A stretch of DNA of 64,000 nt from an uncultured bacterium (lineage in GTDB: Bacteria > Acidobacteriota > Thermoanaerobaculia > Multivoradales > JAHZIX01), in assembly GCA_965368975.1 (NCBI GenBank), contig CBDUPA010000005.1, positions 224,001 through 288,000 of the forward strand, read 5' to 3'. The translations under genes and the position numbers were made by a program. The notes beneath the pieces were generated by a model. The model searched no databases, had not been told where the DNA came from, and worked only from the letters and a program-made list of their open reading frames with translations. Below are positions 30,326 through 52,665 of this stretch, piece after piece; the first letter of the stretch is position 1, and every line of letters starts with the position of its first letter.

Positions 30326-32803
30326 TCATGCGTTGGGTTCCTGCTGGCTGAGGAAGCCGGGATCGCACATGGGGGCGAAGGTGGCGGGCTTGTCGGCAGC
30401 CTTCCAGGCGGTCTCGGGGGAAATCAAGTCGGCTTCGACAAGGTCCATGAGGCTCTGGTCGAGCATGCGCATGCCGATCTGGCGACCGATCTGCATCAGG
30501 CCGGGAAGCTGGAAGGTCTCGTCGCGGCGGATCGTCGAGCCGACGCTCATGGTGCCCTTGAGGACCTCGAAGGCGGCGACGCGGCCGTGGCCGCTCTTGT
30601 GCTGGAGCAGACGCTGGCAGACGATGTACTTGAGCGATTCGGACAGTGCCATGCGCACCTGGGCCTTCTCATCGGCCGGGAAGCTGTCGACCAGGCGATC
30701 GATGGTCTGGACGGCATTGGTGGTGTGCAGGGTGCCGATCATGAGGTGACCGGTCTCGGCGGCTTCGAGCGCCATGCGGATGGTGTCGGTGTCGCGCAGC
30801 TCGCCCACCACGATGATGTCCGGGTCTTCACGCAGGGCGGCGCGCAGGCCGCTGGCGAAGGCCTTGGTATCGCGGCCCACTTGACGCTGGTTGATCAAGG
30901 CCTGCTTGGGTGGATGGACGAACTCGATCGGGTCTTCCAGGCTGATCAGGTGCGACGGCTTGGTCTCGTTGATCAGGTTGATCAGCGCGGTGAGGGTGGT
31001 GCTCTTGCCGCAGCCGGAAGGGCCGGAGATGACGATGACGCCCTGGTGGAAGTCGAGCAGTTCCTTGAGCTGTTCGGGCAGGCCGAGTTCGGCGAAGCTG
31101 GGCGGTCGGTTGGGGATGACGCGGAAGGAGGCGCACAGGCCGAGACGTTGCTCGTAGGCGTTGGCGCGGTAGCGGCCGACTTCGGGGATGGCGTGGCAGA
31201 AGTCGAGGCCCTTCTCTTCCTCCAGGGTCGCCCACTGCTGGTCGTCGAGGGCAGCGCGCAGGTAGGCTGCGCTCTGTTCTGCGGTGATCGGCTTGAGGTG
31301 GTCGAGACGGTAGAGGACGCCGTCGCGGCGTACGACGGGCGGCTCGCCGACGCTGATGTGCAGGTCGGAGGCTTCCATGTCGCGGATTTGCACGAGCAGC
31401 CGGTCGAGCGGGTTGGAGAGCTTGCTAGTGTCGACCTTCGGGCCGCCTTCGCCTTCCTGGTGTGCGACCTGGAACAGCTCGTTCATGCCGCGTAGCACGT
31501 CGTTGGCGCGCAGGCGTACGTCGGCGTCGGGGTCGCGGTCGCGGACTTGCTTGAGGATGCTGAGCAGACGCCGGTCGTTGAACTTGGAGAACGCCTGCAG
31601 CACCTCCATGCGTACTTCCGGTCGCGGGTCGCGCAGCAGTTGGCTCAGCGGCTGCAATGACGAGACGGCGCCGATGTGGGCCAGCGCGTCGACGGCGGCC
31701 CAGCGGGTGTCTTCATCTTGCAGCATGCGCACCAGATGCGGCACGGCGCGCTCGTCCTTGAGGTTGCCGAGCACTTCACAAGCGGTGACGCGCAGCCACC
31801 AGTCCTTGTCTGCCAGCAGCTTGCAGAAGGGCTCGACGAGACGTTTGTCGTTGAAGCCTTCGGCCAGCATCAGCGCGGCGGTACGGATCTCGGGTGTCGG
31901 ATGGCCGAACAGCTTGACGGCGGCGCGCAGCACCGGCTCGCCGCCTTCGCGCAGGGCCTCGTGGATGCGCAGGCGTAGCCAGCCGGCCATCTTGTGGCCA
32001 AGGTTCAGGATCTCGGTAACGGCCTGCTCCGCACTGCTGGAGTCGATCAGGATCTTGATCGCGCTGCGCCGGGTCTGCTCGGTGCCGCGGGGCAGCAGGT
32101 CGAGCAGCGAGCGGCGCAGGACTTTCGGGTTGGACTCGAGTTCGCGCCGCAGGTAGCTCTCGGCGATGCGTCGGCTGGCGTCGTCGCCGTCGGCCAGACG
32201 GTCGAGCATCAACTCGAGGACGCGCGAGTCGGGAGACGTGGACAGCGCCTTGAGCGCGACCTGGGCCAGCTGCAGGTCTTTGTCGCGGCCCAGCTTGAGC
32301 AGCATGTCGAGACGTGCGTCGGGCGGGCTGGTCTCGAGGATCTCGCTCAGCGCCTTGTGACGCATCGCCGCCGGTGCCTCGAACACGGCGCGATCGAGGT
32401 AGGACGCCCGGATACTGCCGGGCAGCGCCAGGGCGACTTCCCAGGCGGTGCGCCGCGCTTGCAGGTCGTCGCTGGTCAGCAACTGCTCCATGGCGCCATG
32501 GACGGCCGCAGCAGGCAAATGCTCGACCAAGGGCAGCAAGCCCTCGCGCATTTTGGCCGACTTGGTGCCCAGCTCGGTGACGAAAGCTTTGACGCCCTCG
32601 GCGTCGGCGCCGCTGACGAATAGCTGGGTGCCGCTCTGGCGTACCGCGCTGTCCTGGTGCACGACCAGCGGCACTAGCTCTGCGCTTTGCTTGGGCGGGC
32701 TCTGCTGCAGCTGGGCCAGCAGGGCGTCGCGCTCTGCTGGGTCGCCCCAGCCGCTGGCGGCGAGGGTCTGGACGGGCGTCTTCTTGCTGCCGAAGAGGGC
32801 CAT
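30326..32803 (-). CDS. HEAT-repeat / PilT-family ATPase fusion
   Basis: ~450 aa of HEAT-like repeats (LLADKDWWLRVTACEVLG, LLRDPRPEVR, DPDADVR), then ASDLHI, GPSGCGKSTT, EDPIE, ALREDPD, GELRD, GTLHT. Confidence 0.85.
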   Translation of the reverse strand: MALFGSKKTPVQTLAASGWGDPAERDALLAQLQQSPPKQSAELVPLVVHQDSAVRQSGTQLFVSGADAEGVKAFVTELGTKSAKMREGLLPLVEHLPAAAVHGAMEQLLTSDDLQARRTAWEVALALPGSIRASYLDRAVFEAPAAMRHKALSEILETSPPDARLDMLLKLGRDKDLQLAQVALKALSTSPDSRVLELMLDRLADGDDASRRIAESYLRRELESNPKVLRRSLLDLLPRGTEQTRRSAIKILIDSSSAEQAVTEILNLGHKMAGWLRLRIHEALREGGEPVLRAAVKLFGHPTPEIRTAALMLAEGFNDKRLVEPFCKLLADKDWWLRVTACEVLGNLKDERAVPHLVRMLQDEDTRWAAVDALAHIGAVSSLQPLSQLLRDPRPEVRMEVLQAFSKFNDRRLLSILKQVRDRDPDADVRLRANDVLRGMNELFQVAHQEGEGGPKVDTSKLSNPLDRLLVQIRDMEASDLHISVGEPPVVRRDGVLYRLDHLKPITAEQSAAYLRAALDDQQWATLEEEKGLDFCHAIPEVGRYRANAYEQRLGLCASFRVIPNRPPSFAELGLPEQLKELLDFHQGVIVISGPSGCGKSTTLTALINLINETKPSHLISLEDPIEFVHPPKQALINQRQVGRDTKAFASGLRAALREDPDIIVVGELRDTDTIRMALEAAETGHLMIGTLHTTNAVQTIDRLVDSFPADEKAQVRMALSESLKYIVCQRLLQHKSGHGRVAAFEVLKGTMSVGSTIRRDETFQLPGLMQIGRQIGMRMLDQSLMDLVEADLISPETAWKAADKPATFAPMCDPGFLSQQEPNA

Positions 32804-32879: not shown

Positions 32880-33419
32880 CTATTCCAGCGTGAAAAGGGG
32901 ATCGCCGCCGTCGACGTTCTGCCCCGGTTGCACGTGGAGCTTGGTGACCGTGCCGGCCTGCTCGGCGACGATTTCGTTCTCCATCTTCATCGCCTCGAGC
33001 ACCACAATGCCCTGGCCTGTCTCGACCTCCGCACCCTCTTCGATGAGCACCGCGACGACGCGTCCGGGCATGTAGGCGGTGACTTCTTGCCGGCCGCCAG
33101 TACCCGCGCCGGCGGCGGCTTCCTGGGCCAGGAAGGTCAGCGGGTCGGTGACGGTGGCCAGGCCGTGGCCGCAGTGGCCATTGCTCGGGCTCAGCTGATA
33201 ACGACCGCTCCCCTGGGGGTGGACGGCGACCTCGAACTGCGACTCGACACTGTGGTTGTCGGCGGTCTCGACGCGCGTACGCAGGCTGTGCAGGTGGGCG
33301 CCGATGCGCACCGCGTCGACGTGGTAGCTCGCCTCGCCGACGCGCACTTGCCAGCCATCGCCGACACGTTCGGCGTTCACCCGCTCCTGGCGGCCATCGA
33401 AGGTGACGATCAGCTCCAT
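32880..33419 (-). CDS. Biotin carboxyl carrier protein with an N-terminal BT-like domain
   Basis: MPGRVV..EAMKMENEI. Start taken at MELIVT (33419) with GGAGAG upstream, overlapping the carboxylase stop. Confidence 0.9.
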   Translation of the reverse strand: MELIVTFDGRQERVNAERVGDGWQVRVGEASYHVDAVRIGAHLHSLRTRVETADNHSVESQFEVAVHPQGSGRYQLSPSNGHCGHGLATVTDPLTFLAQEAAAGAGTGGRQEVTAYMPGRVVAVLIEEGAEVETGQGIVVLEAMKMENEIVAEQAGTVTKLHVQPGQNVDGGDPLFTLE

Positions 33420-34951
33420 GGGTCTCTCCTCAGACTGGTGCTGCGGCCGCTCTGGCGCCAGTAGGATCGGTACGCGCCGGCACCCTCGGCGGGTACGGAC
33501 GCCAGTCGTTCGCTGTCTTCGGCGAAGGCCAGGGCGGCGGCGATGAAGGGCAGGTCGGGCAGGTCGTTGCACTCGGTGGGTTGCAACTCGCCAGCCGCCA
33601 GCTTGCGCTCGAGCATGTCGTTGTCGAGGTTGCCAGCCAGGAAGTCGGCGTCGTCGAGCAGTGCACGGTAGAGTGGGATGGTGGTGCGGATACCCTCGAC
33701 GCGCATCTCGGCGAGCGCCCGGCCCATGCGTTGCACGGCCTGCTGGCGGTCCTCGCCGAAGAAGATCAACTTGGCGAGCATCGGGTCGTAGTAAATCGGG
33801 ACCTCGGCGCCTTCGTAGACGCCGGCATCGACGCGAACGCCCGGACCATCGGGCCAGCGCAGCATGCGGATCAGGCCCGGTGAAGGGGCAAAGCCGCGGT
33901 AGGCGTCCTCGGCGTAGAGGCGTAGCTCGATGGCGTGACCGCGCGGTTCGACATCGTCATACCGCGCGTCGAGAGCTTCGCCCCGGGCGACCGCCAGCTG
34001 TGCCGCCACCAGGTCGAGGCCGGTGACCATCTCGGTGATCGGGTGCTCGACCTGCAGGCGGGTGTTGACCTCGAGGAAGTAGAAGTCCTTGCCGTTGGCG
34101 TCGAGCAGGAACTCGACGGTGCCGGCATTGGTGTAGCCGACCGCGGCGGCGGCGCGCACGGCAGCTTCGCCCATCCGCTTGCGCAGGTCGGCATCGACCA
34201 CCGGCGACGGTGCTTCTTCGACCACCTTCTGGTGCCGGCGCTGCAGCGAGCACTCACGCTCGCCGAGCGAGACGATCTTGCCGTAATGGTCGCCCAGCAC
34301 CTGGATCTCGATGTGGCGCGGGCGGACGACGAACTTCTCCATGTAGACGGCGTCGTCGCCGAACGAGGCTTTGGCTTCCGAGCGCGCGGTGCGGAACGCC
34401 TTGGGCAGTTCCTCGGCCGAGGGCACCATGCGCATGCCCTTGCCGCCACCGCCGGCCGCCGCCTTGAGCATGACCGGGTAGCCGATCGTCTCGGCTGCAG
34501 CGACAGCGGCGTCGACGTCGGGCAGCGGGTCGCGGCCGCCGGGAACCACTGGAACGCCGGCGTCGATCATCATGCGGCGGCTCTCGACCTTCGAGCCCAT
34601 CGAGGCGATCGCCGACGGCGGTGGTCCGATGAAGATGACGTTCGCGTCGGCGCACATCTGGGCGAATTCGGCGTTCTCGGACAAGAAGCCGTAGCCGGGG
34701 TGGATGGCATCGGCGCCGATTTTCACCGCCAAGTCCACGATCGCCTGACCGCGCAGATACGACTCGCTCGAGGGCGCCGGCCCGATGCAATAGGCCTCGT
34801 CGGCCAGCAACACCGGCAGCGCTTCGCGGTCGGCTTCGGAGTACACCACCGCCGCGCGGATGCCCTGGTCGCGCAAGCCGCGCAGCACCCGCACCGCGAT
34901 CTCTCCGCGGTTGGCGATCAATACCTTCTGGATCGTTTTCGTCTCGCTCAT
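33410..34951 (-). CDS. accC: Biotin carboxylase subunit of acetyl/propionyl-CoA carboxylase
   Basis: IANRGEIA, HPGYGFLSEN, GGGGKGM, RECSLQRRHQK, NTRLQVEH, YDPMLAK. Confidence 0.92.
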   Translation of the reverse strand: MSETKTIQKVLIANRGEIAVRVLRGLRDQGIRAAVVYSEADREALPVLLADEAYCIGPAPSSESYLRGQAIVDLAVKIGADAIHPGYGFLSENAEFAQMCADANVIFIGPPPSAIASMGSKVESRRMMIDAGVPVVPGGRDPLPDVDAAVAAAETIGYPVMLKAAAGGGGKGMRMVPSAEELPKAFRTARSEAKASFGDDAVYMEKFVVRPRHIEIQVLGDHYGKIVSLGERECSLQRRHQKVVEEAPSPVVDADLRKRMGEAAVRAAAAVGYTNAGTVEFLLDANGKDFYFLEVNTRLQVEHPITEMVTGLDLVAAQLAVARGEALDARYDDVEPRGHAIELRLYAEDAYRGFAPSPGLIRMLRWPDGPGVRVDAGVYEGAEVPIYYDPMLAKLIFFGEDRQQAVQRMGRALAEMRVEGIRTTIPLYRALLDDADFLAGNLDNDMLERKLAAGELQPTECNDLPDLPFIAAALAFAEDSERLASVPAEGAGAYRSYWRQSGRSTSLRRDPWS

Positions 34952-34952
34952 G

Positions 34953-34983
34953 GGACCGCCGATGTTAGCACCATCGGCGGTCC
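34953..34983 (-). promoter_or_regulatory. Perfect 12-bp inverted repeat immediately upstream of the accC start
   Basis: ggaccgccgatg-ttagcac-catcggcggtcc; on the minus strand the loop region reads TGcTAACAT (extended -10-like). Confidence 0.55.
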
Positions 34984-34996
34984 TCCGGACTCCGAG

Positions 34997-35131
34997 TCAG
35001 TCGGTCTCGTTGCAGGTACCAATACGCCGTGTCGGAAGTCCGCCCGCGGCTTCGGTCAACTCTTGTTCGGCCAGTTGCTGCAGGGTTTCGCGCTTGAGTT
35101 CGAGCTTCAGTTTGTGCTTCGCGAGTTTCAT
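34997..35131 (-). CDS. 44-aa RiPP-type precursor peptide with a double-glycine leader (absent from the ORF track)
   Basis: Hand translation: MKLAKHKLKLELKRETLQQLAEQELTEAAGG-LPTRRIGTCNETD*. AAGGAG 7 nt before ATG, host-like codons, fills the accC/desulfurase gap. Confidence 0.8.
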   Translation of the reverse strand: MKLAKHKLKLELKRETLQQLAEQELTEAAGGLPTRRIGTCNETD

Positions 35132-35211
35132 GCATCTTCTCCTTTATAGCAGGTTAGGGGGGCGATGGTTGGAAGATACCATCGTGCGGAGCACCTTGGT
35201 ATCCTGCCTGG

Positions 35212-36489
35212 ATGCACGATCCAATGCTCGATCTCGATTATGTCCGTGGACAATTCCCAACCCTGAGTGCCCACCCTGACTGGTCCTTCATGGACAACGC
35301 CGGTGGCAGTCTACCGCTGCGCGGTGTGATCGACGGTGTGGCGGACTGCTTGGCTCGCTGGCCGGTGCAACTGGGTGCCAGCTACGAGGTCAGTGCCGAA
35401 GCGACACGGCGCTTTGCCGAGGCGCATGCGACGATGGAAGCGTGGATTGGTGCCGCGCCGGGATCTGTCGTTCTCGGCCCGTCGACGACGCGCAACCTGC
35501 ACATGCTCGCGGCGGCGCTACGGCCGCTGTGGCGAGAGGGTGACGAGGTGATCGTCACCAACCTGGACCACGAGGCCAACATCGGGCCCTGGCGGCGCCT
35601 GGCGGCGACGGGGATTGTGGTCAGGGAATGGCGTGTGCATCCCGAGTCCGCGCGCTTGGAGCTCGACGACCTCGACGCCCTGCTCAGCGAGCGCACACGC
35701 CTGGTCGCCTTGACGCATTGCTCCAATATCGTCGGTGAGATTGTCGACATCGCCGAGGTCGCGCGCCGGGTGCACCAGGCGGGGCCGTCGGGGGATGGTG
35801 TCTCGGAAGATGGGGTGATGGCTGGTGCGAAGGTGTGCGTTGACGGGGTCGCCTACGCGCCACACCGTTGCCTTGATGTGACCGTTTGGGACGTCGACTT
35901 CTACGCCTTCTCTCTGTACAAGACCTACGGCCCGCACCTGGCGCTGCTCTACGGCAAACCCGAGCTGCTGCGCGCGGCACGCAACCAGAATCACTTCTTC
36001 TACGAGGAAGACCAGGTGCCGGGCAAGTTCGAGCCGGGCAATGTGAGCCACGAGCTGGTGGCGGCGTTGCCGGCGATCCCGCACTACTTCGAACAGCTGG
36101 CGTCACGGCATGGACTCGCCGGAGCCGGCGGCGCCGACACGCTGATTCGCAAGCACGAAGCACAGCTGGCGTCGAGGCTGCTCGACTTTCTGACGTCGAG
36201 GTCCAATGTGCGCGTCCTCGGCCCGACGACAGCCGATCCGGACGTCCGAGTGCCGACCCTTGCCTTCCTCCTCGAGGATGCTGCGGGTAGAGCGAGGAAG
36301 TCGAGCGACATCCCGCCGCTGCTCGACCGCGAGCACATCGCTATCCGCTGGGGTGATTTCTACGCCCGCCGCCTGATGCAGGATCTGGGCTTGCTCGAGC
36401 AGGATGGTGTGGTGCGCGTCAGTCTGGTGCACTACAACACGCTGGACGAGGTGGACCGTCTCGTCGAGGTGCTGGAGCGGGTGCTGTAG
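35212..36489 (+). CDS. Class V PLP aminotransferase / cysteine desulfurase-like protein
   Basis: VRGQFP, DNAGG, LDHEANIGPW, HCSNIVG, DGVAYAPH, FSLYK.YGPH (PLP Lys), VRVSLVHYNT. Start may be 35224. Confidence 0.85.
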   Translation: MHDPMLDLDYVRGQFPTLSAHPDWSFMDNAGGSLPLRGVIDGVADCLARWPVQLGASYEVSAEATRRFAEAHATMEAWIGAAPGSVVLGPSTTRNLHMLAAALRPLWREGDEVIVTNLDHEANIGPWRRLAATGIVVREWRVHPESARLELDDLDALLSERTRLVALTHCSNIVGEIVDIAEVARRVHQAGPSGDGVSEDGVMAGAKVCVDGVAYAPHRCLDVTVWDVDFYAFSLYKTYGPHLALLYGKPELLRAARNQNHFFYEEDQVPGKFEPGNVSHELVAALPAIPHYFEQLASRHGLAGAGGADTLIRKHEAQLASRLLDFLTSRSNVRVLGPTTADPDVRVPTLAFLLEDAAGRARKSSDIPPLLDREHIAIRWGDFYARRLMQDLGLLEQDGVVRVSLVHYNTLDEVDRLVEVLERVL

Positions 36490-36693
36490 CTGGCTCTCCA
36501 GGGCACTGGCAGACCGTTGCGTTCATGATAGTTTGGGGCGGTCTATGCCGGCGGCGTCCGGGTTGCTTCCCAAGACTCCAGTCCCGGTTCTGCGGTTGGG
36601 CTGCACAAGCCATGGTAGAGCGTTCCGGACTCTTCAATGAGTTCGTCTTGTTTTGCTTTGATCTCTGATTACCCTTGAGGAGAGCAGACTTCT

Positions 36694-39600
36694 ATGGAGT
36701 TCGCGACCCTGCTCGACGTCCTGCGGGCGCGAGCTGATTCCTATTCGCAGCAGGAAGCATTTGTATTCCTCGCCGATGGTGAGGAGGTCGGTGAACGGCT
36801 CACCTTCGGGCAGCTGGACCGCGACGCGCGTGCACTCGGGCACCGGATGCGCGCACACGTCGGTGGTGGGCTGGCCGGGGAGCGTGTGCTCCTGGTGTAT
36901 CCACCGGGGCTGGATTTCATCCGCGCCTACATGGCTTGCTTCTACGCCGGGGCCGTCGCGGTGCCGGCGTATCCGCCGCGCTTCAACCGGCCGCAGCCGC
37001 GACTGCGCTCGATCCTGCGCGACGCGCGACCGAAGCTGGCACTGACGGTCGACAGTATCGCGCGCCGCGTCGACGCGCTGGCGCGTCACGTGCCGGAGGC
37101 TGCCGCGCTGGAGTGGTGGTCGACGGACGACGGCTGGCTGCAGGGCGCCGACGCGGACGCCGCCGCGCAGAGCTGGGTGCATCCCGATCTGGGGGCCGGT
37201 GATCTGGCGTTCCTGCAGTACACGTCGGGCTCGACGTCGCTGCCCAAGGGCGTCATGGTCAGCCATGGCAACCTGATCCACAATGAGACGCTGATCCGTA
37301 CCGCCTTCGGCCACGACGCTCTTGGTGAAGGGCCGGCCGGTGAGGGGACGGCGACGCGCGTGGTCAGCTGGCTGCCTCTGTACCACGATATGGGCCTGAT
37401 CGGCGGCATCCTGCAACCGCTGTTTCTTGGCACCACGTGCGTGCTGATGGCGCCGATGTCGTTCCTGCAGAAGCCGCTGCGCTGGCTGCAGGCGATCAGC
37501 GACTGGGGCTCGAAGCTGGATCTGGACACGACGTCCGGTGGTCCCAACTTCGCCTACGAGTTGGTGGCGCGACGCGCGACCGCGGAGGACCTGCAGGGAC
37601 TCGACCTGTCGCGTTGGCGCGTGGCGTTCAACGGCTCCGAGCCGGTGCGCGCGTCGACGCTGCGCCGTTTCGCCGAGGTCTTCGAGCCCTGTGGGTTCGA
37701 CCCCAAGGCCTTCTTCCCGTGCTACGGCCTGGCCGAGACGACGCTGTTCGTCACTGGCGGTGTGCCGGAGCGGGGGCCGGGTGGACAGGGTGCGGTGATC
37801 GAGAGTTTCGACGACGTCGAGCTGGGCAAGGATCGGGCGGTCGAACTGGCGGAGGCCGAAGGTGGACGGCCGCTGGTCGGCTCAGGGCGGACCTGGCTGG
37901 ATCTGGATGTCGCTATCGTCGAGCCGGACAGTCGGCGCCGAGCGGCACCGGGCACCGTGGGGGAGATCTGGGTTCACGGACCGAGTGTGGCGCAGGGGTA
38001 CTGGGCCAACCCGGAGCGGACGCGCAACGACTTCCACGCCACCATTGTGGGTGAGGACGCGACCCGGCACTATCTGCGCACCGGCGATCTGGGCTTCTTG
38101 CATGCCGCGAGCCACGGCCGTGCCGGTGCCCAGCTCTATGTTACGGGTCGTTTGAAGGACCTGATCATCCTGCGCGGGCGCAACTACTACCCGCAGGATA
38201 TCGAGCTCACCCTCGACGACGCACACCCGGCGATCCGTGCCGGCTGCGGTGCCGCCTTTGCGCTCGAGGTCGAGGGCGAGGAGCGGCTGGTGGTGGTGCA
38301 GGAGCTGGAGCGACGGCAGGAAGCCGACGCCGATGGCGCACTGGAAGCGGTGCGTCACGCGGTGTCTGAGGCGCACGAGCTGGCCGTCTACGAGGTGGTG
38401 CTGCTGCGCGCCGGCACGCTGCCCAAGACCACCAGCGGCAAGATTCAGCGCCACGCCGCCCGCCGTGGATACCTGGAGGAGTCCCTGCACATCATCGCCA
38501 GGAGTGGTGCCGCGGAGGCGAGTAACGCTGTCTCGCATGGCAGTGGCGATGTCCAGTGGGAGGCGCTGAGTCGCCAGGCTCTCGACGGTCTCGATCTCGA
38601 CGCCCAGCGTCAGCTACTGGAAACGTACCTCGTGCACGCGGCGGCGCGCGCCTGCGGCCTCAAGGCCGAGCAGGTGACGACGGATCTGCCTCTGCCGCGC
38701 CTGGGGCTCGACTCGTTGGCGGCGGTCGAGCTGCAGCACCGTGTCGAGGGTGATCTGGAGTTGGAACTCGAACTGGCGCCGCTGCTCGAAGGCGTGACGC
38801 TGGGCGAACTGGCGTTGCGCCTGGCCAAGCAGGCGGCGCGGCCAAGGACGGCGACCGCGGCCGCCGCCGAGGTCGAGATGGAAGTGCCGGCGGAGACGGC
38901 GTCGCAGGGGCAGCGTTCTCTGTGGTTTTTGCAGCGTTTGGCGCCCGAGAGCGGCGCCTACCACATCGCGGCGGCGGCACGCCTGGTGGCCAATCCCGCG
39001 GGTGCCGGCTTTGGTGGTGTCGACCTCGATACGGCCGCCTTGCGCTGCGCTCTGGCGGCTCTGGCGTTGCGCCACGGCGAACTGCGTGCCAGCTTCCCGG
39101 GTGTCGATGGCGAGCCGCGCCGACGCCGGCACGAGGACCTGGTGCCGGAGCTGCTAGAAGAACCGGTCGCCGCGGCCCAACTGGTCGATCTGGCGGCGCG
39201 CCTGGCCCTGCTGCAGGAGTGCGTCAGTCGCCCCTTCGACCTCGAGCGCGGTCCTTTGCTACGCCTCTTTGTTCTTCGGCCGCAGGCCGCGACGAACCAG
39301 GTCGAAGAGAGCCAGGCAGCGATCGCGCTGCTGGTCGTCCACCATCTGATCGCCGACTTCTGGTCGCTCGGTGTGCTGGCACGCGAGCTCGACATCTTGT
39401 ACCGGCACGCGCTGGAAACCCCGGAGCGTTCGGCGGCTGACCTCGCCGCTGTGCTGGCACCGCTGCCGGCGAGCTACGACGATCACGTGCGCTGGCAGGC
39501 GCAGTTGCTGGCGGGGGCCAAAGGCGAGGCGCAGCTGCGTTACTGGCGGCAGCAGCTCGACGGTCTGCCCGTCCTCGACTTGCCAACCGACCGTCCGCGG

Positions 39601-42600
39601 CCGGTGGTGCAGAGCTGGGCTGGCGACACGCGGCCCATGCGGCTCGGGTCGGCACTGTCCGAGCGCCTGCACAGTTTCTCGCGCGACCGCGGAACGACTC
39701 TCTTCGTCACTCTCTTGACCGCCTGGCAGTCGCTGCTCAGTCGCTTGTCGGGGCAGCACGACATCGTGGTCGGAGCCCCGACGGCTGGTCGCCGTCAAGC
39801 CGAGCTGGCGGGGGTTGTTGGCTACTTTGTCAATCCGGTGGCGCTGCGCGCCGACCTGCGGCCGCCACGCCAGACGAACGGCACGCCCAACGGGGCCCCT
39901 CCGGGCACTTTGTCCTTCGGTGAGCTGGTGCGCGAGGGCCACGTGCGTTTGCTCGAAGCCTTCGCCAACGCCGACTATCCGCTGGCCTTGCTCGCAGAAC
40001 ACCTGCAGCCGCAGCGCGACCCGGCCCGACCACCACTGTTCCAGGTCATGTTCGTGTTGCAGCGGGCGCAAAAGCCGGAGGAGCAACCGCTCGGTGCCTT
40101 CGCGCTCGGTCTGCCGGGCGGCCGGCTGCGCCTGGGCCCGTCGGAAGTCGAATCGCTGGCCTGGCGCGAGCCGTACACGCCCTTCGACCTGGTGTTGCGC
40201 AGCGCCGACCTGGTCGATCCCGAGGGGCACCGCCAGCTCGGCGTGTCGCTGCAGTTCAATCGCGACCTCTTCGATGGCACCACGATCGAGCGCTGGCTGC
40301 GCCTGTGGCGGCGTTTCCTGGTGGCTGCTGCTGCCGAGCCGTCGCGGCCAGTAGAGAGTCTGAACCTGCTGTCGCCCACCGAGCGTCACCAGCTGTTCAC
40401 CGAATGGACCGACACTGGCGCACCCTACCCACGGAACGCCAGCGTGCCGGCACGTCTGGCCGAGGTTGCCGCGGTGCGGCCCGAGACGGTAGCGGTGGTC
40501 GGTGGGCGTATGCACTTGAGCTACGGCGAGTTGGTGCGTCGTGCCAGTGGTCTGGCTGGCGAGTTGCAGCGACGCGGTGTGCGTCCCAGCAACCTGGTGG
40601 CGGTCTCCACCGAACGTACGGCCGACCGCGTCGTCGCTCTGGTGGCGATCCTGTGGAGTGGTGCCGCGTACCTGCCACTCGACGCCCGCCTACCCGCCGC
40701 GCGCCTGAACCTGCTGTTGCGCGACGCCCGCCCGGTGTTGTGCCTCGCCGACGCCCGCTCGCGCGCCGTCTGGCCCCGCGAGGAGATCACCGAGGATGTC
40801 GAAGCGGCGGACCTCGAAGCCCTCATCACCGGCAGCCAGGGTGCCGAGACCGCGGGTACGAGCCTGCAGCAGGCCGTCGGGGGTATCCGGGCCGACGCCG
40901 AGCAACTGGCCTATGTCCTTTACACCTCCGGTTCCACCGGCACCCCCAAGGGTGTCGCGGTAGCGCACCGGTCGATCTTGCGCCTGGTCACGGCGTCCCT
41001 GGGCGGCGACGCCAACTATATGGACTTCACGCCGCACGACACCTTCCTGCAGCTGTCGTCGCTGTCCTTCGACACCTCGACGTTCGAACTCTGGGGCTCC
41101 TTGCTCAGCGGCTCGCGCCTGGTCATGCTGCCTGGCCATGGTGCACCGGTGCTGACCGAGCTGCGCCGCGAATTGACGCAGCAGCAGGTCAGCGCCCTGT
41201 GGCTCACCGCGGGTCTGTTCCACCAAGTGATCGAGGAAGACGTCGCGATGCTCGCCCGCCTGCGTGTGCTGATGTCGGGTGGCGACGTGCTGTCACCGCC
41301 TCACCTGCGCCGCCTGCTGGCCGCCTTCCCTGGCCTGCGCATGGTCAACGGCTATGGCCCGACCGAAAATACGACGTACACCAGTTGCCACGTGATGACG
41401 GGGGGCCCCGAGGCCATTCCGCCGGGGTCGGTGCCGATCGGTCGCCCGGTGGCCGCGACCACGGCGGTGGTGGTCGATCACGCCGGCCGTCCGGTGCCCC
41501 TGGGCGTTGCTGGCGAGTTGTGGACCGGTGGCGACGGTGTGGCGGTCGGGTACTACGCGCGACCGGCCCAGACGGCTTCGGTGTTCGTGCCGGATCCCTT
41601 CGGCGCCTCGGTGGCAGTTCCCTCCCAGGGCACCCACAGCGGGGTGCCCCTACAGGCGGGATCTCTGGCGCCCGACGGCGGGGCCCGTCTCTACCGTACC
41701 GGTGACCTGGTGCGCTGGCGTGCCGACGGCGTGCTGCAGTTCTTCGGCCGCATCGACCGCCAGGTAAAGATTCGTGGTTTCCGCATCGAGCCGGGCGAGA
41801 TCGAAGCGGCGCTGAGCCAGCATCCGGCGGTGCGCGAGGCGGCGGTGGTGGTGCTGCGACCCTCTGGCGGCGCCATTCTTGTTGGTTGCCTCGTGTTGGA
41901 AGACTCGGAACTGGAGAATGGCCAGCAGCTCGCGGACGGTGATCTGCGCGAGCACCTGGGAGGGCGCCTGCCCGAGTACATGGTGCCGTCGCGCTTCGCT
42001 TACTTCGATGTTCTGCCGCTCAACACCAGTGGCAAGGTGGATCGCAACGAGCTGGCCCGCCGTCTGCCCGCGCTGCTCGCCGAGCAGGCCCCGGCAGAGG
42101 GGGATGCACCGCGCACCCCGACCGAGAAGCTGATCGCCGAGCTGATGGCGGAGTTGCTGGAGCACGGCACCGGCGGGGCCACGCTGGGCCGTGACGTCGA
42201 CTTCTTCGCCCTCGGCGGTCACTCGCTGATGGCCACGCGCCTGATTTCCCGCCTGCACGCCGCGCTCGGCGTCGAGATTCCGCTGCGCCTGCTGTTCGAG
42301 GCTCCGACGCCGGCTCGTCTCGGCACTGCCGTCGACGCGCAGGTGAAAGCGCAGGGCGGTAGCGTCCTGCCAGCGCTCGAACCGGTGGCGCGACCCGAGC
42401 GGCCCGCGCTGTCGCCGGCCCAACATCGCCTGTGGCTGCTCGACCGTCTGCACCCGGGCAGTCCCGCCTACAACATTCCCGGGCGCCTGCACCTACGCGC
42501 CGAGTCGACCGTGGCCGGGCGGAGCTCTGGCGGGCTGGATGTCGAGAAGCTGGAAGCGGCTCTGCGTCAGATCGTCGAACGCCACGAGGTCCTGCGTACC

Positions 42601-45600
42601 GTGTACCCGACGGGTGACGACGGCGAACCCTGGCAGCAGATCCAGCCGCGCGTCGAGACCGCGCTGCCGGTGCTCGACCTGAGCCACCTCGCTGCGGCTG
42701 ATCAGCAGCGCGAAGCCGGACGGCTGGCGCGACAGGAGGCGCTACGGGCCTTTGATTTGGTCGCGGGACCGGTGGTGCGGTGGCTGTTGGTGCGGCAAGA
42801 CGCGGTGGGGCAGGATCTCCTGCTGACGCTCCACCACATCGCGGGTGACGGCTGGTCGCTGGGCGTGCTCGTACGCGAGCTGGAAGCGCTCTATCGGGGC
42901 GACGACCTGCCGCCGCTGCCGGTGCAATACGTCGACTTTGCCGCCTGGCAGCTGGATTGGCTGCAAACCGGCGCAGCGGTGGCGCGCGACCTGGCCTGGT
43001 GGCGCGACGAGCTGGCTGGTGTCGAGGCGCTGCCGCTGCCCACGGATCATCCACGACCGGCGACGCCGAGCTATCGTGGCGGCGCCGTGCCGATCGCGCT
43101 GGATAGCGAGCGGGGAGGGGCTGCTAGTGCTCGCCTCGACGCCTTCGCGCGGGAGCGCGGCGTGACTGCCTTCATGGTGCTCAGTGCCGTCCTGCAAGTC
43201 TTGCTCGGCCGGCTGGCCAACCAGGCGGACGTGCCGCTGGGGACGCCGGTGGCGGGTCGTGCGCATCCGCGGACCGAGAGCCTGATTGGTTTCTTCGTCA
43301 ACACCCTGGTGCTGCGCGCCGACCTGGGCGGGGATCCGACCTTCGGCTCGTTGCTGGAGCAGGTGCGACGGTCGACGCTGGATGCGCTGGCGCACCAGGC
43401 GGTGCCCTTCGAGCAGCTGGTCAATGAACTGACGGGTACGGCAGCGTCGCGGCGCGATCTGGCACAGACACCTCTCTTCCAGGTCATGCTGGCGCTCAAC
43501 AACGCGCCGTTCCGCGCGCCTGTGCTGCCGGGCCTGGACGTCGAGGCGAGTGCCGTCGAGGCAGCAACGCAGAAGTTCGACCTGACGCTGTCGCTGGCCG
43601 AGACGCCCGGGGGTGGGCTGCGCGGCGCTCTGGGCTATGCCAGTGACCTCTTCGAGCGCACCACTGCCGAGCGCTGGGCCGCTCATTTCCAGCGTCTGCT
43701 GGCGGCCGCCCTGGCGCATCCGGAAACCCGTCTTTCCGAGCTGCTGATGCTGAGCGACAGCGAGCGCCGCGAGATCCTGAGCTGGTCCGCCGAGGCGTCG
43801 ACCGCGGACGTACCGGCCGAAGACGTACCCGCCGCCGAGAACGCGACCGTGCCGGCGTGGATTGCCGCCCAGGCCGTGCTGACGTCGGAGGCTCCGGCCG
43901 TGCGCTTGGTGGGTGGGGACGCGGTGCTGAGCTACGCCGAGCTGGACGCGCGCGCCGCGGCGCTGGGGGCTCGTTTGCGCGCCTTGGGTGCCGGTCCTGA
44001 GAGCGTCATCGCGGTGCTGGCCGAACGGGTGCCGGCGGCCCTGGTGGCGTTCCTGGGGGTGTGGAAGGCCGGTGCCGCGTTTCTGCCGCTCGATCCGGCG
44101 GACCCCCACGAGCGGTTGCGCTTCGTGCTGCACGACGCCGCGCCGCTGGCGCTGGTGGCGGCGGGGGATGTCGCCGAGATCCTGGCGGCCCTGGAGAGTG
44201 AGGTGCCCGTCGTCGAGATCGAATCCGAGGTCGGGGCTCCCCACGGTGGAGGCTCTCCGGACGCCTCCGCCCAGGACGGTTCCTCTGCGCTGATCGAACG
44301 GGATCACCTGGCCTACGTCCTCTACACCTCGGGTTCGACCGGTCGACCCAAGGGAGCGGGCATCCACCACGGTGCCCTGGCCGACTACATGGCGTGGGCG
44401 AAACGCGAGCTGCTGGAGGGTGTTACGGCGATTCCGGCGACCACGCGCTTCAGCTTCGACGCGGCGTGGAAGCAGCTCTTCGGGCCGCTGCTCGGCGGTG
44501 GCTGTGTGCGTCTATGGCCGTCCGAGCTGGTGCAGGACCCGCCGCGCGCGCTCCAGGCGCTGGCGAACGGCACCGACACCGTGGCTTTCAATGGCGTTCC
44601 GTCGTTGTGGCGAGCGCTCCTGCTGGCCGCCGAAGCCGGCGACGGTCCGGTGCCGACACACCTGCGGCGTCTGCTGTTGGGTGGCGCAGCGTTGCCGATC
44701 GAGTTGGTGCGCCGCACCCACGCTTTGCTGCCCGGAGTCGACATCGTCAACCTCTACGGGCCGACCGAGACGACGGCGAATGCGTCGGCGTCGAGAGTGA
44801 CGGCCGATGCTCGCTCGGTGACCCTCGGTCGCCCCGCCGCGCGCCTGCGTCTCCACGTACTGCGCCTCGCCGGTGCGGCCGTGCCGCTGGCCGAGCCGCT
44901 GCCGGAGGGTGTGCCAGGTGAGCTGTGCATCGGTGGCTCAGGCGTTGCCCGAGGCTATCTGGGTCGCCCTGGCCTGACGGCCGCGCGCTTTGTGCCGGAC
45001 CCGTTTGTGGGCACTGGATCCCGGCTCTACCGTACCGGTGATCTGGTCCGCTGGCGCTGCCGCTCCGAAGACCAACACGCCAGTGGAGGCCCCGCCGAAC
45101 CGGAGTTCCTTGGCCGTCTCGACCACCAGGTCAAGATCCGCGGACTGCGCCTGGAGTTGGGCGAGATCGAAGCCCAGCTGCAATCGCACCCGGCGGTGCG
45201 TGCGGTGGTGGCACTGGTGGCCCGACGCGAAGAGGGCAGTTCGGACCAGTTGGTCGCCTTCGTCGAGGCGCCGGAGCTGGCGGCACGACCGCCGCAGCAG
45301 ATCGACGCCGAGGCCGCTGTACTGCGCGACTTCCTGCGCGGCCGTGTACCGGAAGCGGCGGTCCCGTCGGCGCTGTGGATTGTCGATGCCCTGCCGCGTC
45401 TGGCGGGAGGTGCCGGTGGCAAGGTCGACCGCCGAACGCTGGCGGCCGAGGCGCCGTCGCGCCTGGCTGAGACGACGGCGGCGATCCAGACGCACGAACT
45501 GAGCCCGGCTGAGCAGATCCTGGCCGGAATCTTCGCCGAGGTGTTGGGCGTACCCGTCGAGAGTGTTGGAGCTCGGGACGATTTCTTCGAGCTCGGCGGC

Positions 45601-48600
45601 CACTCGCTGCTCGCCACGCAGGTGACCTCGCGCATCCAGAAGGCGTTCGGTGTCGACGTGCCGCTGCGCCGCCTGTTCGAGGCGCCGCGCCTGAGCGAGC
45701 TGGCGACGGCGGTGGAAGCCGAGTTGCGCGAAGGCCGTCCGGCTCCGCCGCCGCTGGTGCGCGTTTCGCGCGCTGGGCGTCTACCGCTGTCCTTCGCCCA
45801 GCAACGTCTATGGTTGCTCGATCACCTGAATCCCGGTTCGCCGGCCTACAACATCCCGATCGCGGTGGCGCTCGAGGGGGATCTCGACGTCGAGGCCCTG
45901 GAGGCTGCGCTGGTCGCCCTGGTGGTCCGGCACGAAGTGCTGCGCACGCGCTTCCCGGTGGTCGTCCGTGAGAACGGGACGGAGCAGCCGTACCAGGAGA
46001 TCTGTGAGCCGGCCTTTGAGTTGGAGGTCGTCGAAGCCAGAGCCCAGGACGTCGCGGACATCGTGCGCGAAGAGGGTCGCCGGCCGTTCCACCTGGCGAT
46101 GGGGCCTCTGTTGCGGGGGATGTTGGTGCGGGAGAGCAAGACGTCCGGGAGCGCCGTCCTCCTTCTCACCCTGCACCACACCGTCGCCGACGGCTGGTCG
46201 ACCGGTATCTTGCTACGCGAGCTGCAGGCCCTCTATGCGGATGCCTCCTCGGAAGCACTCTCTGAAGGGCGCGCCAAGCTGCCACCGCTGCCGGTGCAGT
46301 ACGCGGACTTCGCAACCTGGCAACGCGGCTGGCTACAGGCCCAGGATCTGGAAGAACGCAGTGTCCTGGACGTCCAGATCGACTTCTGGCGCCGTCAGCT
46401 GGGGGATGCGCCGGCCCTCGACCTACCGACCGACCGACCACGGCCGGCGGTGCGGGCCCTCGCGGGGGCGACGCTGCCGGTGCACTTGCCGGCGACGCTG
46501 GTGCGGGGGCTGGAGGCGCTGGCAAGGCACCAGGGAGCGACTCTCTTCATGGTGCTGCTGGCGGGCTTCCAGGCCCTGCTCAGTCGCTGGGTCGGCCTGA
46601 TGCGCGACGCCGACGCGCCGGTCAACGTCGGTTCGCCGGTGGCCGGTCGGCGGGTGGCGGAGACGGAGGGGCTGATCGGCCTCTTCGTCAACACGCTGGT
46701 GCTGTCGGGCGACCTCGCCGATGGTCCGGACTTCGTCGAGCTGCTGGCGCGCACCCGGCGTGTGACGCTGGATGCCTATGCGCATCAGGATGTGCCGTTC
46801 GAGAAGCTGGTCGAGGCGCTGGTGCCGCGGCGCGACACGGCTGTCACGCCGCTCTTCCAGGTGCTGCTGGCGCTGCAGAACGCGCCGATGCCGGCACTCG
46901 AATTGACGCGGGAAGGCGAGCACGGTGCGCAAACCGTGACGCTACGGCCCCTCGATCCGGACACCGCGACGTCCAAGTTCGATCTCAGCCTGCTGCTGCG
47001 GCCGGAGCGTTCTGGAAATGCAGACGCGGCCAAGCGTGGACTGAGCGGTGGCCTGGAGTACGACACGGCGCTGTTCGATGCCACCACCATGCTGCGTCTG
47101 TGGCACGCCTTCGAGCGCCTGCTGCACGGCATTGTCGCATCGCCGCAATCGGCGGTGGCGACGCTTTCGCTGTTCGGCCGCGCCGAGCGCCACCACCTAC
47201 TCTACGAGTGGCCGCCGGGTGCCGCGCTGCCTGAGCGTCTGGACGGTCCGCCCTCGACCCTGCACGAGCTGGTGCTGGCGCAGATCCAGCGCACGCCGGA
47301 CGATACCGCGATCCTGACCGCGCAGCGGCCGGAGAGCGGTGGTACGCAGACGGACAAGGCGAAGAGCCCGCTGATCCGCTGGAGCTACCGTCGCCTGGAC
47401 GCTGAGTCGGCTCGCGTCGCGGCGCACGTGCGGCGTCTCGGTGTCGGGCCAGAAGTGACCGTCGGTGTCAGCATGCGGCGCACTCCGGCGCTAGTGGCGT
47501 CGATCCTCGGCATCCTGCGTGCCGGCGGCGCCTACGTGCCGCTCGATCCGGCCTATCCGCCGGAGCGCCGCGCCTTCATGCTCGAAGACGCACAGATCTC
47601 GATGCTGCTCACCGAGCGTGACCTGCAACCGCCGGCCGACCTGGCGTGTCCGCTGATCTTGATCGAGGACATCCTGACGCCGTGGCAGGCGCCGGAGGTG
47701 GAAGCGGGGACGCCGGAGGCGGACACCCACCCACCCACCCAGGGCACCCACATGGGGGTGCCCCTACCCAGATCCGGTTCCGACTCCCGTGTAGGGGCGG
47801 CTCCCGAATCCCAGCTGGCGCACATCTTCTGCACCGACGTCTGTCCCGACAACCTGGCGTACTCGATCTACACTTCCGGTTCCACCGGACGTCCCAAGGG
47901 CATCGCGATCTGCCACCGTACGGCGGTCAACATGCTGCGCTGGTCGTACACGGTGTGGTCGAAGGAAGAGCTGGGCGCCATGTTCGCCGGCACCTCGATC
48001 AATTTCGACATCTCGGTGTTCGAGACCTTCGCGCCGCTGACCACCGGCGGCATCATGACCATCGGCGACGATGCGCTCGACCTGGCCGGTCACCCGGCGG
48101 CTGATCGCATCAAGCTGGTCAACACAGTGCCCTCGGCGGTCGCCGAGCTGGTGCGCCTGCAAGCGATCCCGCCGTCGGCGACGACGGTCAACCTGGCCGG
48201 TGAGGCGGTGCCGAGAAAGCTGCTGCGGCAACTGGAGAAGCTGCCCAACACGCCGCGTGCAGTCAACCTCTACGGCCCGTCGGAAGACACCACCTACTCG
48301 ACCTGGGCGATCATCTCGGACGTGCGGCACGGCGTGGTCAACCGCGAAGACGACACCTCGGCGGTGTCGGTAGGACGCCTGATCTCGGGCAGCTACGGCT
48401 ACCTGGTCGACCGCCGCGGACAGCTGGTGCCGTTGGGAGTGCCCGGCGAGCTGTACATCGGTGGTGGCGGTGTCACGCGGGGCTACCTGCAGCGTCCGGC
48501 CCTGACCGCCGATCGCTACATGCCCGACTGGGTGACGCCGGCCAGTGCTGCCAGTGCCACGACGACGGCACAGGGCGGTGCCCGCCTGTACCGGACGGGT

Positions 48601-51600: not shown

Positions 51601-52665
51601 GTGCTGGTGACCCGCTATGCCGTCACCGACGCCAAGCAGATCGGTACCCAGGTGTCGATCGGGCGGCCGATTTCCAACTCGCACGCCTACATCGTCGACC
51701 GCCGCCTGCGGCCGGTGCCGCTGGGTGTCGCCGGTGAGCTGTGCTGCGGAGGTGACGGCGTCACCCGCGGCTACCTCGATCGTCCCGGCCTGACCGCCGA
51801 GAAGTTCATCCCTGACGCCTTCAGCGGACAGGCGGGCGAGCGCATCTATCGTACCGGCGACCTGGTGCGCCACCTGCAAGACGGTCGCCTCGACTTCATG
51901 GGGCGTATCGACTTCCAGGTCAAGGTGCGCGGCTTCCGCATCGAGCTGGGGGAGATCGAGGCCAGTCTGAGCAAGCATCCGCACGTGCGCGAGGCGGTGG
52001 TGATCACGCGCAAGGACGTGGCGGGTGACAACCGCCTGGTGGCCTACGTTGTGTTCGATGCCGAGCGGCCGGCGCACGAGCTGCCCGCCGGGCCGCGCGA
52101 GCTGCGCACGGTGATGCAAGAATTCCTGCGCGCGACGCTGCCCGACTACATGGTGCCGGTCGATTACGTGCACCTGACCGAGATGCCGCTGTCGTCCAAC
52201 GGCAAGGTCGACCGCCGCCGTCTGCCCGAGCCCGAGCTGCCCGGCGGCAGCAGCGACGAGGGATACGTGGCGCCAGCCAACGAACTGGAGCAGGTGATCG
52301 CGGGCGTCTGGCAGGAGGTGTTGCAGGTCGACCGCGTTGGCACGCGCGACCACTTCTTCGAACTGGGCGGCAGCTCGCTGCTCATCGCGCGCTTGCGCAG
52401 CCGGCTGCAAGCCGTGCTCGAACGCGAGATCCCGCTGGTCGAGCTGTTCAAGCATCCGACCGTGGCGGCGCAGGCGCAGGCGCTGAGTGCCGGTGGCAGC
52501 ATCGAACCGGCCGCCGCCGAACGCTCGCGTGCGCGCTCCCAGACGCGCCGCGACTCCATGCGCAAACTACAGGAGCGGCGCACGCGCCGTGGTGATCGCG
52601 GCCCGCGCGGTGGTCGTGGCGGCCGGGGTCGTGGTGGTCGCGGTGGGCCGGACGACAAGACCTGA
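36694..52665 (+). CDS. NRPS: FAAL-ACP-(C-A-PCP)x4
   Basis: FAAL ([37 protein letters not shown]); ACP GLDSL; C motifs HHLIADF, HHIAGDG, HHTVADG, HHIASDG; four YTSGSTG.PKG/YGP.E/YRTGD sets; PCP GGHSL x3 and GGSSL. Confidence 0.96.
41626..41653 (-). repeat. GTAG-type REP-like palindrome inside NRPS A1
   Basis: cagggcacccacagcggggtgcccctac; stem gggcaccc/gggtgccc with GTAG on the minus strand. Confidence 0.7.
47740..47798. repeat. Second REP-like copy plus inverted half-partner inside NRPS A3
   Basis: cagggcacccacatgggggtgcccctac (26/28 identical to the 41626 copy), then gtaggggc at 47791-98. Confidence 0.7.

Follow-up and report, generated by a model that had tools for sequence, protein, structure and literature searches.

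The window is a 64,000-nucleotide stretch (C5:224001-288000; C denotes a contig and L a locus) of a 7.13-Mb, 59-contig Acidobacteriota genome of soil type, G000, with a G+C content of 65.4%. On its minus strand an open reading frame (ORF) begins with the ATG at 35131-35129, ends with the TGA at 34999-34997, and encodes the 44-residue peptide MKLAKHKLKLELKRETLQQLAEQELTEAAGGLPTRRIGTCNETD. This ORF is very likely a genuine gene, belongs to a family of small genes that share one type of leader, and most likely encodes an independently translated, LanA-like precursor peptide. Enzymes of the class I lanthipeptide type are encoded on other contigs of the same genome, and we infer that the window's copy is modified in trans. 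The features of the gene and its surroundings are presented in Table 1.

Table 1. Features at the precursor gene and in its surroundings, in window coordinates
Feature	Coordinates	Strand	Description
Precursor peptide gene	34997..35131	minus	44 codons, TGA stop included in the coordinates; from the ORF list and the sequence
Shine-Dalgarno sequence AAGGAG	35139..35144	minus	7 nt 5' of the ATG; from the sequence
Leader, residues 1-31	35039..35131	minus	MKLAKHKLKLELKRETLQQLAEQELTEAAGG; LxLx(K/R)x5L motif and Gly-Gly end
Core, residues 32-44, with stop codon	34997..35038	minus	LPTRRIGTCNETD; three Thr and one Cys
Hairpin	34953..34983	minus	perfect 12-bp stem and 7-nt loop, between the peptide stop and the carboxylase ATG (34951); no U-tract
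Biotin carboxylase gene	33410-34951	minus	starts 45 nt 3' of the peptide gene and is followed by a biotin-carrier-like gene
Class V aminotransferase gene	35212-36489		divergent, upstream of the peptide gene
Nonribosomal peptide synthetase (NRPS) gene	36694-52665	plus	single ORF of 5323 aa, upstream of the peptide gene

The reading frame and its translation are identical to those in a preliminary description of this DNA, in which the strand, now assigned as minus, was left unstated; the strong AAGGAG named there is present at the spacing given in Table 1. The ORF had also been called unlisted. The frame itself stands, but that label does not, as the exact product is already gene-called in a public protein collection (P0001). 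A second, overlapping frame of 56 codons, with its start 4 nt upstream, was set aside because its spacer to the Shine-Dalgarno (SD) sequence is 3 nt and because it has no relatives. A leave-one-out hidden Markov model (HMM), built from 27 other leaders of the same genome, ranks the ORF 37th among 81,378 small ORFs with an E value of 4.7e-7 (31.5 bits). The best match of this model in a reversed database has an E value of 0.023. The G+C fractions at the three codon positions of the gene are 0.66, 0.39, and 0.68. A sigma-70 consensus scan of positions 34800-35400, which does not cover non-canonical promoters, returned no promoter site, and the sole terminator-like match from a scan around the gene lies inside the ORF on the wrong strand.

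All of the near-invariant positions of the family (L10, L12, T16, L17, and G30) are kept in the leader. Its motif reads L10-E-L12-K-R14-ETLQQ-L20, followed by G30-G31, with Arg in place of Lys as in the consensus of this genome. Double-glycine leaders carry hydrophobic and acidic residues at positions -12, -8, and -7. Residues L20 (-12), E24 (-8), L25 (-7), and G30/G31 (-2/-1) provide this context here, as expected for the leader of a substrate of a peptidase-containing ATP-binding cassette (ABC) transporter (PCAT, or C39-ABC exporter). The 44-residue peptide also has the LxLxKx5L motif and the Gly-Gly end described in Walker 2020 (PMC7268733).

The 13-residue core has Thr at positions 3, 8, and 12 and Cys at position 9, and thus contains the Ser/Thr and Cys residues required for a (methyl)lanthionine. 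The composition that had been proposed, three Thr and one Cys or enough for one methyllanthionine ring, is confirmed from the sequence. The single Cys is next to a Thr, and therefore at most one ring could form. General lanthipeptide chemistry would make a Thr3-Cys9 methyllanthionine the most plausible ring. Thr8 is unsuitable as the ring partner because it is adjacent to Cys9, and a Thr12-Cys9 ring would need the less common C-to-N direction.

The whole genome was searched first with a leader regular expression and afterwards with an HMM made from its matches. The family obtained comprises 55 small ORFs, which are distributed over 36 loci and 21 contigs. The membership in a dispersed precursor family that had been suggested for the window's peptide is borne out by this result, since its gene is one of 55 mostly unlinked copies. 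The family consensus is MKKxxxxKLxLxRETLxxLxxxxLxxAxGG, after which the cores are unrelated and hypervariable; the mean column identity is 43% in the leader versus 21% across the whole peptides. An SD-like 4-mer is found at -17 to -5 in 53 of the 55 members, versus 303 of 3000 random small ORFs. The 70 nt downstream of the stop codons have a median folding energy of -28.5 kcal/mol versus -23.3 kcal/mol for random genomic 70-mers (Mann-Whitney p = 1e-4), and 17 of the 55 fall under the 5th percentile of the random set. The leaders are rich in Lys/Arg and nearly free of Cys. The cores contain 11.5% Cys, 10.9% Thr, and 8.2% Ser, and at least one Cys together with at least one Ser/Thr is present in 52 of the 55.

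NCBIfam NF038153 (lant_leader_L1a, "class I lanthipeptide") is the sole curated model with consistent matches to the family. It matches 29 of the 53 members scanned at E <= 0.01, and a scan of the genome with this model gave 36 matches at E <= 1, 16 of which pass the curated cut-off. The proposed resemblance of the leader to the class I lanthipeptide type is supported by these paralogues, and the motif in Walker 2020 (PMC7268733) agrees with it. TIGR04149 (GG_sam_targ_CFB) matches one of the 53 paralogues with an E value of 0.005 and does not match the window's peptide. The Nif11/NHLP models of NCBIfam gave no match among the 53 members, and none of the 53 matches any model in the local copy of Pfam. 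The nearest clusters in the ESM Atlas are named "class I lanthipeptide leader" with a score of 0.88, which is taken as a lead only; the Atlas also names a newer family, PF28317, that lies outside the Pfam copy scanned.

The cores of two adjacent family genes at L032 (C21:93192-93876) are identical over their 23 C-terminal residues, TTISPDCVHNESVGCPTTFTPTW, and the two genes differ in the leader and in the start of the core; the metagenome protein P0003 is a near copy. Away from the loci with lanthipeptide enzymes, the neighbors of the family genes are unrelated genes (such as rho, ccm genes, clpB, rpoC, tRNA synthetases, groES, and kinases). For loci L001-L014 the survey of neighbors covered 139 proteins within 6 kb on either side at E <= 1e-5. 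For L015-L036 it covered 77 of 114 selected ORFs (at least 110 aa, within 3.5 kb on either side) at E <= 1e-12. This partial survey is complemented by a whole-genome table of enzyme distances for LanB, LanC, C39, and LanM only. S9 prolyl oligopeptidases adjoin L003 and L013, which is judged to be coincidence, given how many such genes the genome has. L021 (C11:197990-205944) has six leader genes in a stretch of 8 kb, and these are neighbors of a CHAT-TPR protein, a Ser/Thr kinase-TPR protein, and an extracytoplasmic function sigma factor. The copy at C11:198981 in this locus is clearly decayed, with the leader kept and a 4-residue core, SVNK.

The genome encodes one full-length, high-scoring LanB of 1159 aa (C13:~49.7-51.8 kb), with a score of 558 bits for Lant_dehydr_N together with a Lant_dehydr_C domain. 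Two other LanB-like loci are found on C12 and C9. There are four stand-alone LanCs (three on C13 and one on C1), one class II LanM (DUF4135+LanC, C18), and three C39-ABC exporters with OEP or HlyD neighbors. The LanB, LanC, and PCAT genes that were to be looked for elsewhere in the genome are therefore present. Whole-genome scans for LanB, LanC, LanM, and C39 gave no match on contig C5 and none within at least 54 kb of the gene, so the reported absence of these enzymes from the window extends to the entire contig. Further LanC-type proteins are a RamC_N-kinase-LanC (C22), a kinase-LanC (C41), and a HopA1-LanC fusion (C1).

The locus on C13 is a canonical class I cluster that contains the LanB, two precursors with the same leader, and two LanCs. 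Only two of the 55 family genes have a LanB within 20 kb; the remaining 53 are more than 20 kb away or on another contig. Five have a LanC at this distance or closer, which in four cases is the adjacent gene, and none is within 20 kb of the LanM or of any of the three PCATs. The window's gene is thus linked to neither LanB nor LanC, and no member of the family has a linked C39-ABC exporter. At C1:561300 and C13:186196 a LanC comes immediately after a family gene, and these contig stretches contain no LanB. For these two precursor-LanC pairs the LanB must therefore already act in trans.

Three small ORFs at L056:14752-17152 (C13) have acidic leaders that end in (V/L)AGG and belong to another leader family. 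They lie beside a PCAT, a second ABC protein, and an outer-membrane factor, and are probably the substrates of that exporter. At L066:3208-3294 (plus strand, C22) a 29-codon ORF, MNTVLALQDL...SLNCC, has an LxLQ-like motif and is located directly 5' of the RamC_N-kinase-LanC protein; this ORF probably encodes the precursor of a class III lanthipeptide. The fusion of a HopA1-family domain with a LanC-like domain at L065:5541-7820 (minus strand, C1) is 760 aa long and has an unusual architecture.

The distribution of the leader was determined in 121 genomes of the same order, which were searched with the leader profile of this genome and with Pfam models; 31 of them are leader-positive. LanB (E <= 1e-30) is found in 28 of the 31 leader-positive and 8 of the 90 leader-negative genomes. 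The corresponding numbers are 30/31 and 57/90 for C39 and 18/31 and 22/90 for LanM. Descriptively, these counts single out LanB, and neither LanM nor C39 tracks the leader in this manner. Of the three leader-positive genomes that lack LanB, one is 79% complete and the other two have only marginal leader matches, and the eight leader-negative genomes with LanB have mostly weaker LanB types. In low-copy relatives the leader gene is located between LanB and a C39 exporter (G007:C11, G007:C7, G201:C149, G228:C4, G210:C43, and G235:C35). High copy numbers are found in family f7 (genera g10 and g24), where 10 of 15 genomes have 20-57 leader copies with 1-3 LanB each. The three g10 genomes have 20, 29, and 46 leader genes with one LanB each. 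Among 150 other genomes across the phylum, NF038153 gave 1-2 matches in just 5.

A complex of LanB residues 1-900 (alignment of 44 homologues) with the window's peptide was modeled in three runs, together with three controls. The complex score is 0.62 (0.65, 0.59, and 0.62 in the individual runs) versus 0.01 for the best control. In the benchmark, 116 of 157 solved complexes attained that score mark, as did 2 of 215 mismatched pairs. At least 53% of the contacts are common to the runs, and the predicted local distance difference test value of the partner is 46-49. The modeled contacts join leader residues 8-10 and 12-21, the KLxLxRETLxxL block, with LanB residues 244-263 and 290-316. In the alignment to the Protein Data Bank structure, LanB query residue 306 aligns with residue 212 of NisB, which places the contact site in the N-terminal region. 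In NisB, this region binds the nisin leader. In the model, then, the window's leader looks like a LanB ligand, which is a statement of likeness rather than of binding.

We favor a pathway in which the leader would dock on the single cognate full-length LanB on C13 and LanB would dehydrate Thr residues of the core. One of the four stand-alone LanCs would then add Cys9 to a dehydrated Thr, and one of the three C39-ABC exporters would cut after Gly31 and secrete the 13-residue product. This complete mechanism, modification by a distant LanB and LanC with PCAT cleavage at the Gly-Gly site on export, is given a probability of roughly 0.6. Binding, dehydration, cyclization, cleavage, and export are predictions for the window's copy, as would be any biological role, including the signaling role that had been suggested. 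One distant enzyme set probably serves all of the ~55 precursors, because all of these genes carry the docking leader of class I enzymes.

Several results weigh against this pathway. The core is the shortest functional-looking one of the family, and its single Cys is next to a Thr. Among the NF038153 matches of the genome, that of the window's copy is the weakest. It scores 13.8 bits in the genome scan and 14.7 bits (E = 0.026) with hmmscan, and the cut-off of 22 places it outside the membership of the curated model. None of five genomes of the same taxonomic family has a leader match. A DNA search of 40 relatives matched just the first ~35 bases of the neighboring carboxylase gene and the paralogue on C12 described below, and a search of 5.8 billion clustered proteins with the single peptide returned only the peptide itself. 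No orthologue was found in these searches, and therefore conservation rests on one paralogue. The co-occurrence counts overstate the support because related genomes are not independent samples. The pass in docking may reflect memory of the model, since NisB, MibB, and 9G04 are solved relatives in sequence. In the two complete f7 genomes, which have 57 and 41 copies, LanB is within 20 kb of 2 of the 98 leader genes and LanM likewise within 20 kb of 2 of the 98; one of the two near LanB is 3.7 kb upstream on the same strand. By our own arithmetic this placement is near random, and therefore adjacency in these genomes does not pick the enzyme. Dispersal of the leader genes is the rule in these two complete high-copy genomes.

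The alternative that survives best, although it is unlikely, is that the leader functions as a double-glycine secretion signal alone. The product would then be unmodified, with its lone Cys free or in an intermolecular disulfide, and would resemble a class II bacteriocin or a signal. The Gly-Gly context fits the classic double-glycine consensus, and the three C39-ABC exporters of the genome are intact, with OEP/HlyD partners. C39 is present in all but one of the leader-positive genomes, and a short core with one Cys has few ring options. The presence of C39 in well over half of the leader-negative genomes, however, means that it does not track the leader, whereas LanB does. An odd number of Cys is found in 27 of the 55 cores, so internal disulfides alone cannot explain the family. 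The conserved residues L10, L12, RETL, and L20 are upstream of the protease signal, which usually spans -12 to -1, and it is these that were modeled on LanB.

The sole sequence with a related core is the paralogue at C12:60843-60998, MRTKSKHTKLELHRETLRKLSENELIEVQGALPTTPIGTCSDAEACMSTVY, which has an isoleucyl-tRNA synthetase gene on one side and an ABC transporter on the other. Its core of 21 aa contains two Cys and begins with ALPTTPIGTC, similar to the start of the window's core. The two genes have ~75% DNA identity, with ~25% of the aligned bases different. The ratio of nonsynonymous to synonymous substitution rates (dN/dS) is 0.48 (Nei-Gojobori, 41 codons), a coding-type pattern from a small sample. 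Synonymous changes between the pair occur within the conserved L-E-L, R-E-T-L, L-P-T, and I-G-T-C segments. The changes inside LPT..IGTC and the dN/dS of 0.48 therefore indicate that the start of the core has been kept under selection since the duplication. A profile search of the protein collection returned 24 proteins, none with a related core. The lack of ORF conservation in relatives had been named as evidence that would count against the gene, and on this point the outcome is divided, with no orthologue found and one paralogue that has a related core. Relatives in the leader only are found at nine contig loci in metagenome-assembled genomes (MAGs) of Thermoanaerobaculia, Holophagales, and Actinomycetota. 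Three Actinomycetota MAG contigs (L050-L052) have the leader type MKKLELHRETLRDLTEVDLAEAVGG..., and therefore the leader family crosses phyla.

In the five genomes of the same family (L059-L063), a conserved same-strand gene for a membrane protein precedes the carboxylase orthologue. The peptide, aminotransferase, and NRPS genes are all absent from beside the carboxylase orthologue in these five genomes. The window has a synteny break at 34952-36693, where the peptide gene, the aminotransferase, and the NRPS take the place of the membrane-protein gene. The position of the peptide gene at this break suggests that it is probably a recent arrival at the locus.

A recent arrival could also be a decaying copy, a recent paralogue with a truncated core that is an unproductive substrate and persists because it is young. 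The core is the shortest of the family apart from that of the clearly decayed copy at C11:198981, and that copy demonstrates that decay does occur in the family. The nearest paralogue has the longer core with two Cys, no orthologue was found anywhere searched, and the gene is at the synteny break. We consider this explanation improbable, since every near-invariant leader residue, a strong SD sequence, and a perfect downstream hairpin are retained. The substitutions that separate the C12 pair, which is already ~25% divergent, also place the start of the core under selection.

[quoted passage not shown] Gly-Gly leaders with C39 exporters are typical of class II systems (Walker 2020, PMC7268733), and the genome has its one LanM. 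One family member matches TIGR04149, a model of rSAM-modified Gly-Gly peptides, and a radical SAM gene is next door at one locus (L019). None of the 55 members, however, is within 20 kb of the LanM. LanM is found in four of the five same-family genomes without leader genes and in none of the three g10 genomes with 20-46 leader genes. The first PCAT on C13 has its own nearby acidic peptides of the ELxxxxLxxVAGG type, which have the appearance of class II substrates. The window's peptide itself does not match TIGR04149. That the ORF is a chance open frame in a GC-rich intergenic stretch is very unlikely, close to negligible, for although it has just 44 codons and no sigma-70-like promoter was found by the consensus scan, its leave-one-out E value is far below that of the best reversed-database match, its SD spacing is optimal, and its substitution pattern relative to the C12 paralogue is of the coding type.

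The preferred class I reading can be compared with known systems. In many class I LanAs of Bacteroidetes, LxLxKx5L replaces FxLD, often with a Gly-Gly end and a C39 protease in the cluster, as described in PMC7268733. The window's peptide resembles these LanAs (NF038153; the pinensin group in the same source) in leader architecture, the Gly-Gly end, and a Cys/Thr-rich core, and the same leader is found beside LanB, LanC, and C39 exporters in this genome and its relatives. It differs in the Acidobacteriota host, the score under the curated cut-off, the lack of an enzyme within at least 54 kb, and the mostly unlinked copies. Substrates of C39 ABC exporters share L(-12), E(-8), L(-7), and GG(-2,-1) with the peptide, and three PCATs are encoded in the genome. 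Unlike these substrates, the peptide has no linked PCAT and has an extra N-terminal KLxLxRETL block, and its family tracks LanB rather than C39. The KLxLxKE(T/I)..L...GG leader style of the rSAM-modified Gly-Gly peptides of Bacteroidetes (TIGR04149) is similar, as reflected in the one matching paralogue. The window's peptide falls outside that model, and the adjacent genes (biotin carboxylase, aminotransferase, and NRPS) do not include an rSAM/SPASM maturase; NF038153, in contrast, matches 29 of the 53 members.

The layout is similar to that of the prochlorosins and ProcM/SyncM of marine picocyanobacteria (PMC10783134, PMC9872173, and PMC7268733), which have dozens of scattered precursors with a conserved leader and hypervariable cores, apparently served by few enzymes. 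The ratio here is 55 genes to one cognate LanB, and in the sister family it is 20-57 genes to 1-3 LanB. Many scattered precursors remote from the enzyme are thus common to both systems, whereas the class II LanM and the Nif11/NHLP leader of the prochlorosins are not. LanB and LanC are separate proteins rather than a fused LanM, and the phylum and habitat are different. The family is not a member of the prochlorosins because the enzyme class and the leader family both differ. Promiscuous modification has been demonstrated experimentally for ProcM and is a prediction for the present system.

A tentative proposal, to which we assign slightly less than even odds, is that a single LanB and a few stand-alone LanCs mature a library of ~55 peptides. 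Such a library would parallel the prochlorosin/ProcM system with class I enzymes and would have arisen or spread in two or more families of a single Acidobacteriota order, with the 13-residue core of the window's peptide among its products. If so, these LanB and LanC enzymes would be naturally substrate-tolerant class I catalysts and a toolkit for peptide engineering, and the lanthipeptide diversity of soil Acidobacteriota would be far above that suggested by cluster counts. The purpose of hypervariable peptide libraries, unanswered for the prochlorosins too, could then be studied in a second, unrelated lineage. Genome mining adjacent to the enzymes would miss 53 of the 55 precursors here; in Walker 2020, the precursor search is limited to seven genes on either side of the enzyme (PMC7268733). 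A full-text literature search, the scope of which excluded subscription journals and closed supplements, returned Walker 2020 as the sole source on the leader type and no account of dispersed class I expansions in Acidobacteriota. A 2026 paper on the coral microbiome reports acidobacterial clusters of classes II and III only (PMC13083261). The leader type is already known, and relative to the literature searched the dispersed class I layout appears to be new, as a variant layout.

The hairpin downstream of the peptide gene has a minimum free energy of -32.7 kcal/mol (z = -3.6), and 1 of 200 shuffles is as good. Its loop and 3' arm include a TAACAT hexamer at 34962-34967 (minus strand), which precedes the carboxylase ATG by ~11 nt. 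The five same-family genomes without the peptide have a conserved TAnnAT at the corresponding place upstream of the carboxylase orthologue. Because of this conservation, the hairpin may have a double role, as the terminator of the peptide gene and as a structure that overlaps the -10 element of the carboxylase gene.

The 5323-aa NRPS begins with a fatty-acyl-AMP-ligase-like adenylation region, which is followed by several C-A-T modules and a Gly/Arg-rich tail. A functional tie of the peptide to the adjoining NRPS or aminotransferase was considered and was not adopted, since it has no support beyond proximity. An 825-aa protein encoded at 30326-32803 on the minus strand combines HEAT repeats with a secretion ATPase domain of the T2SSE/PilB type.

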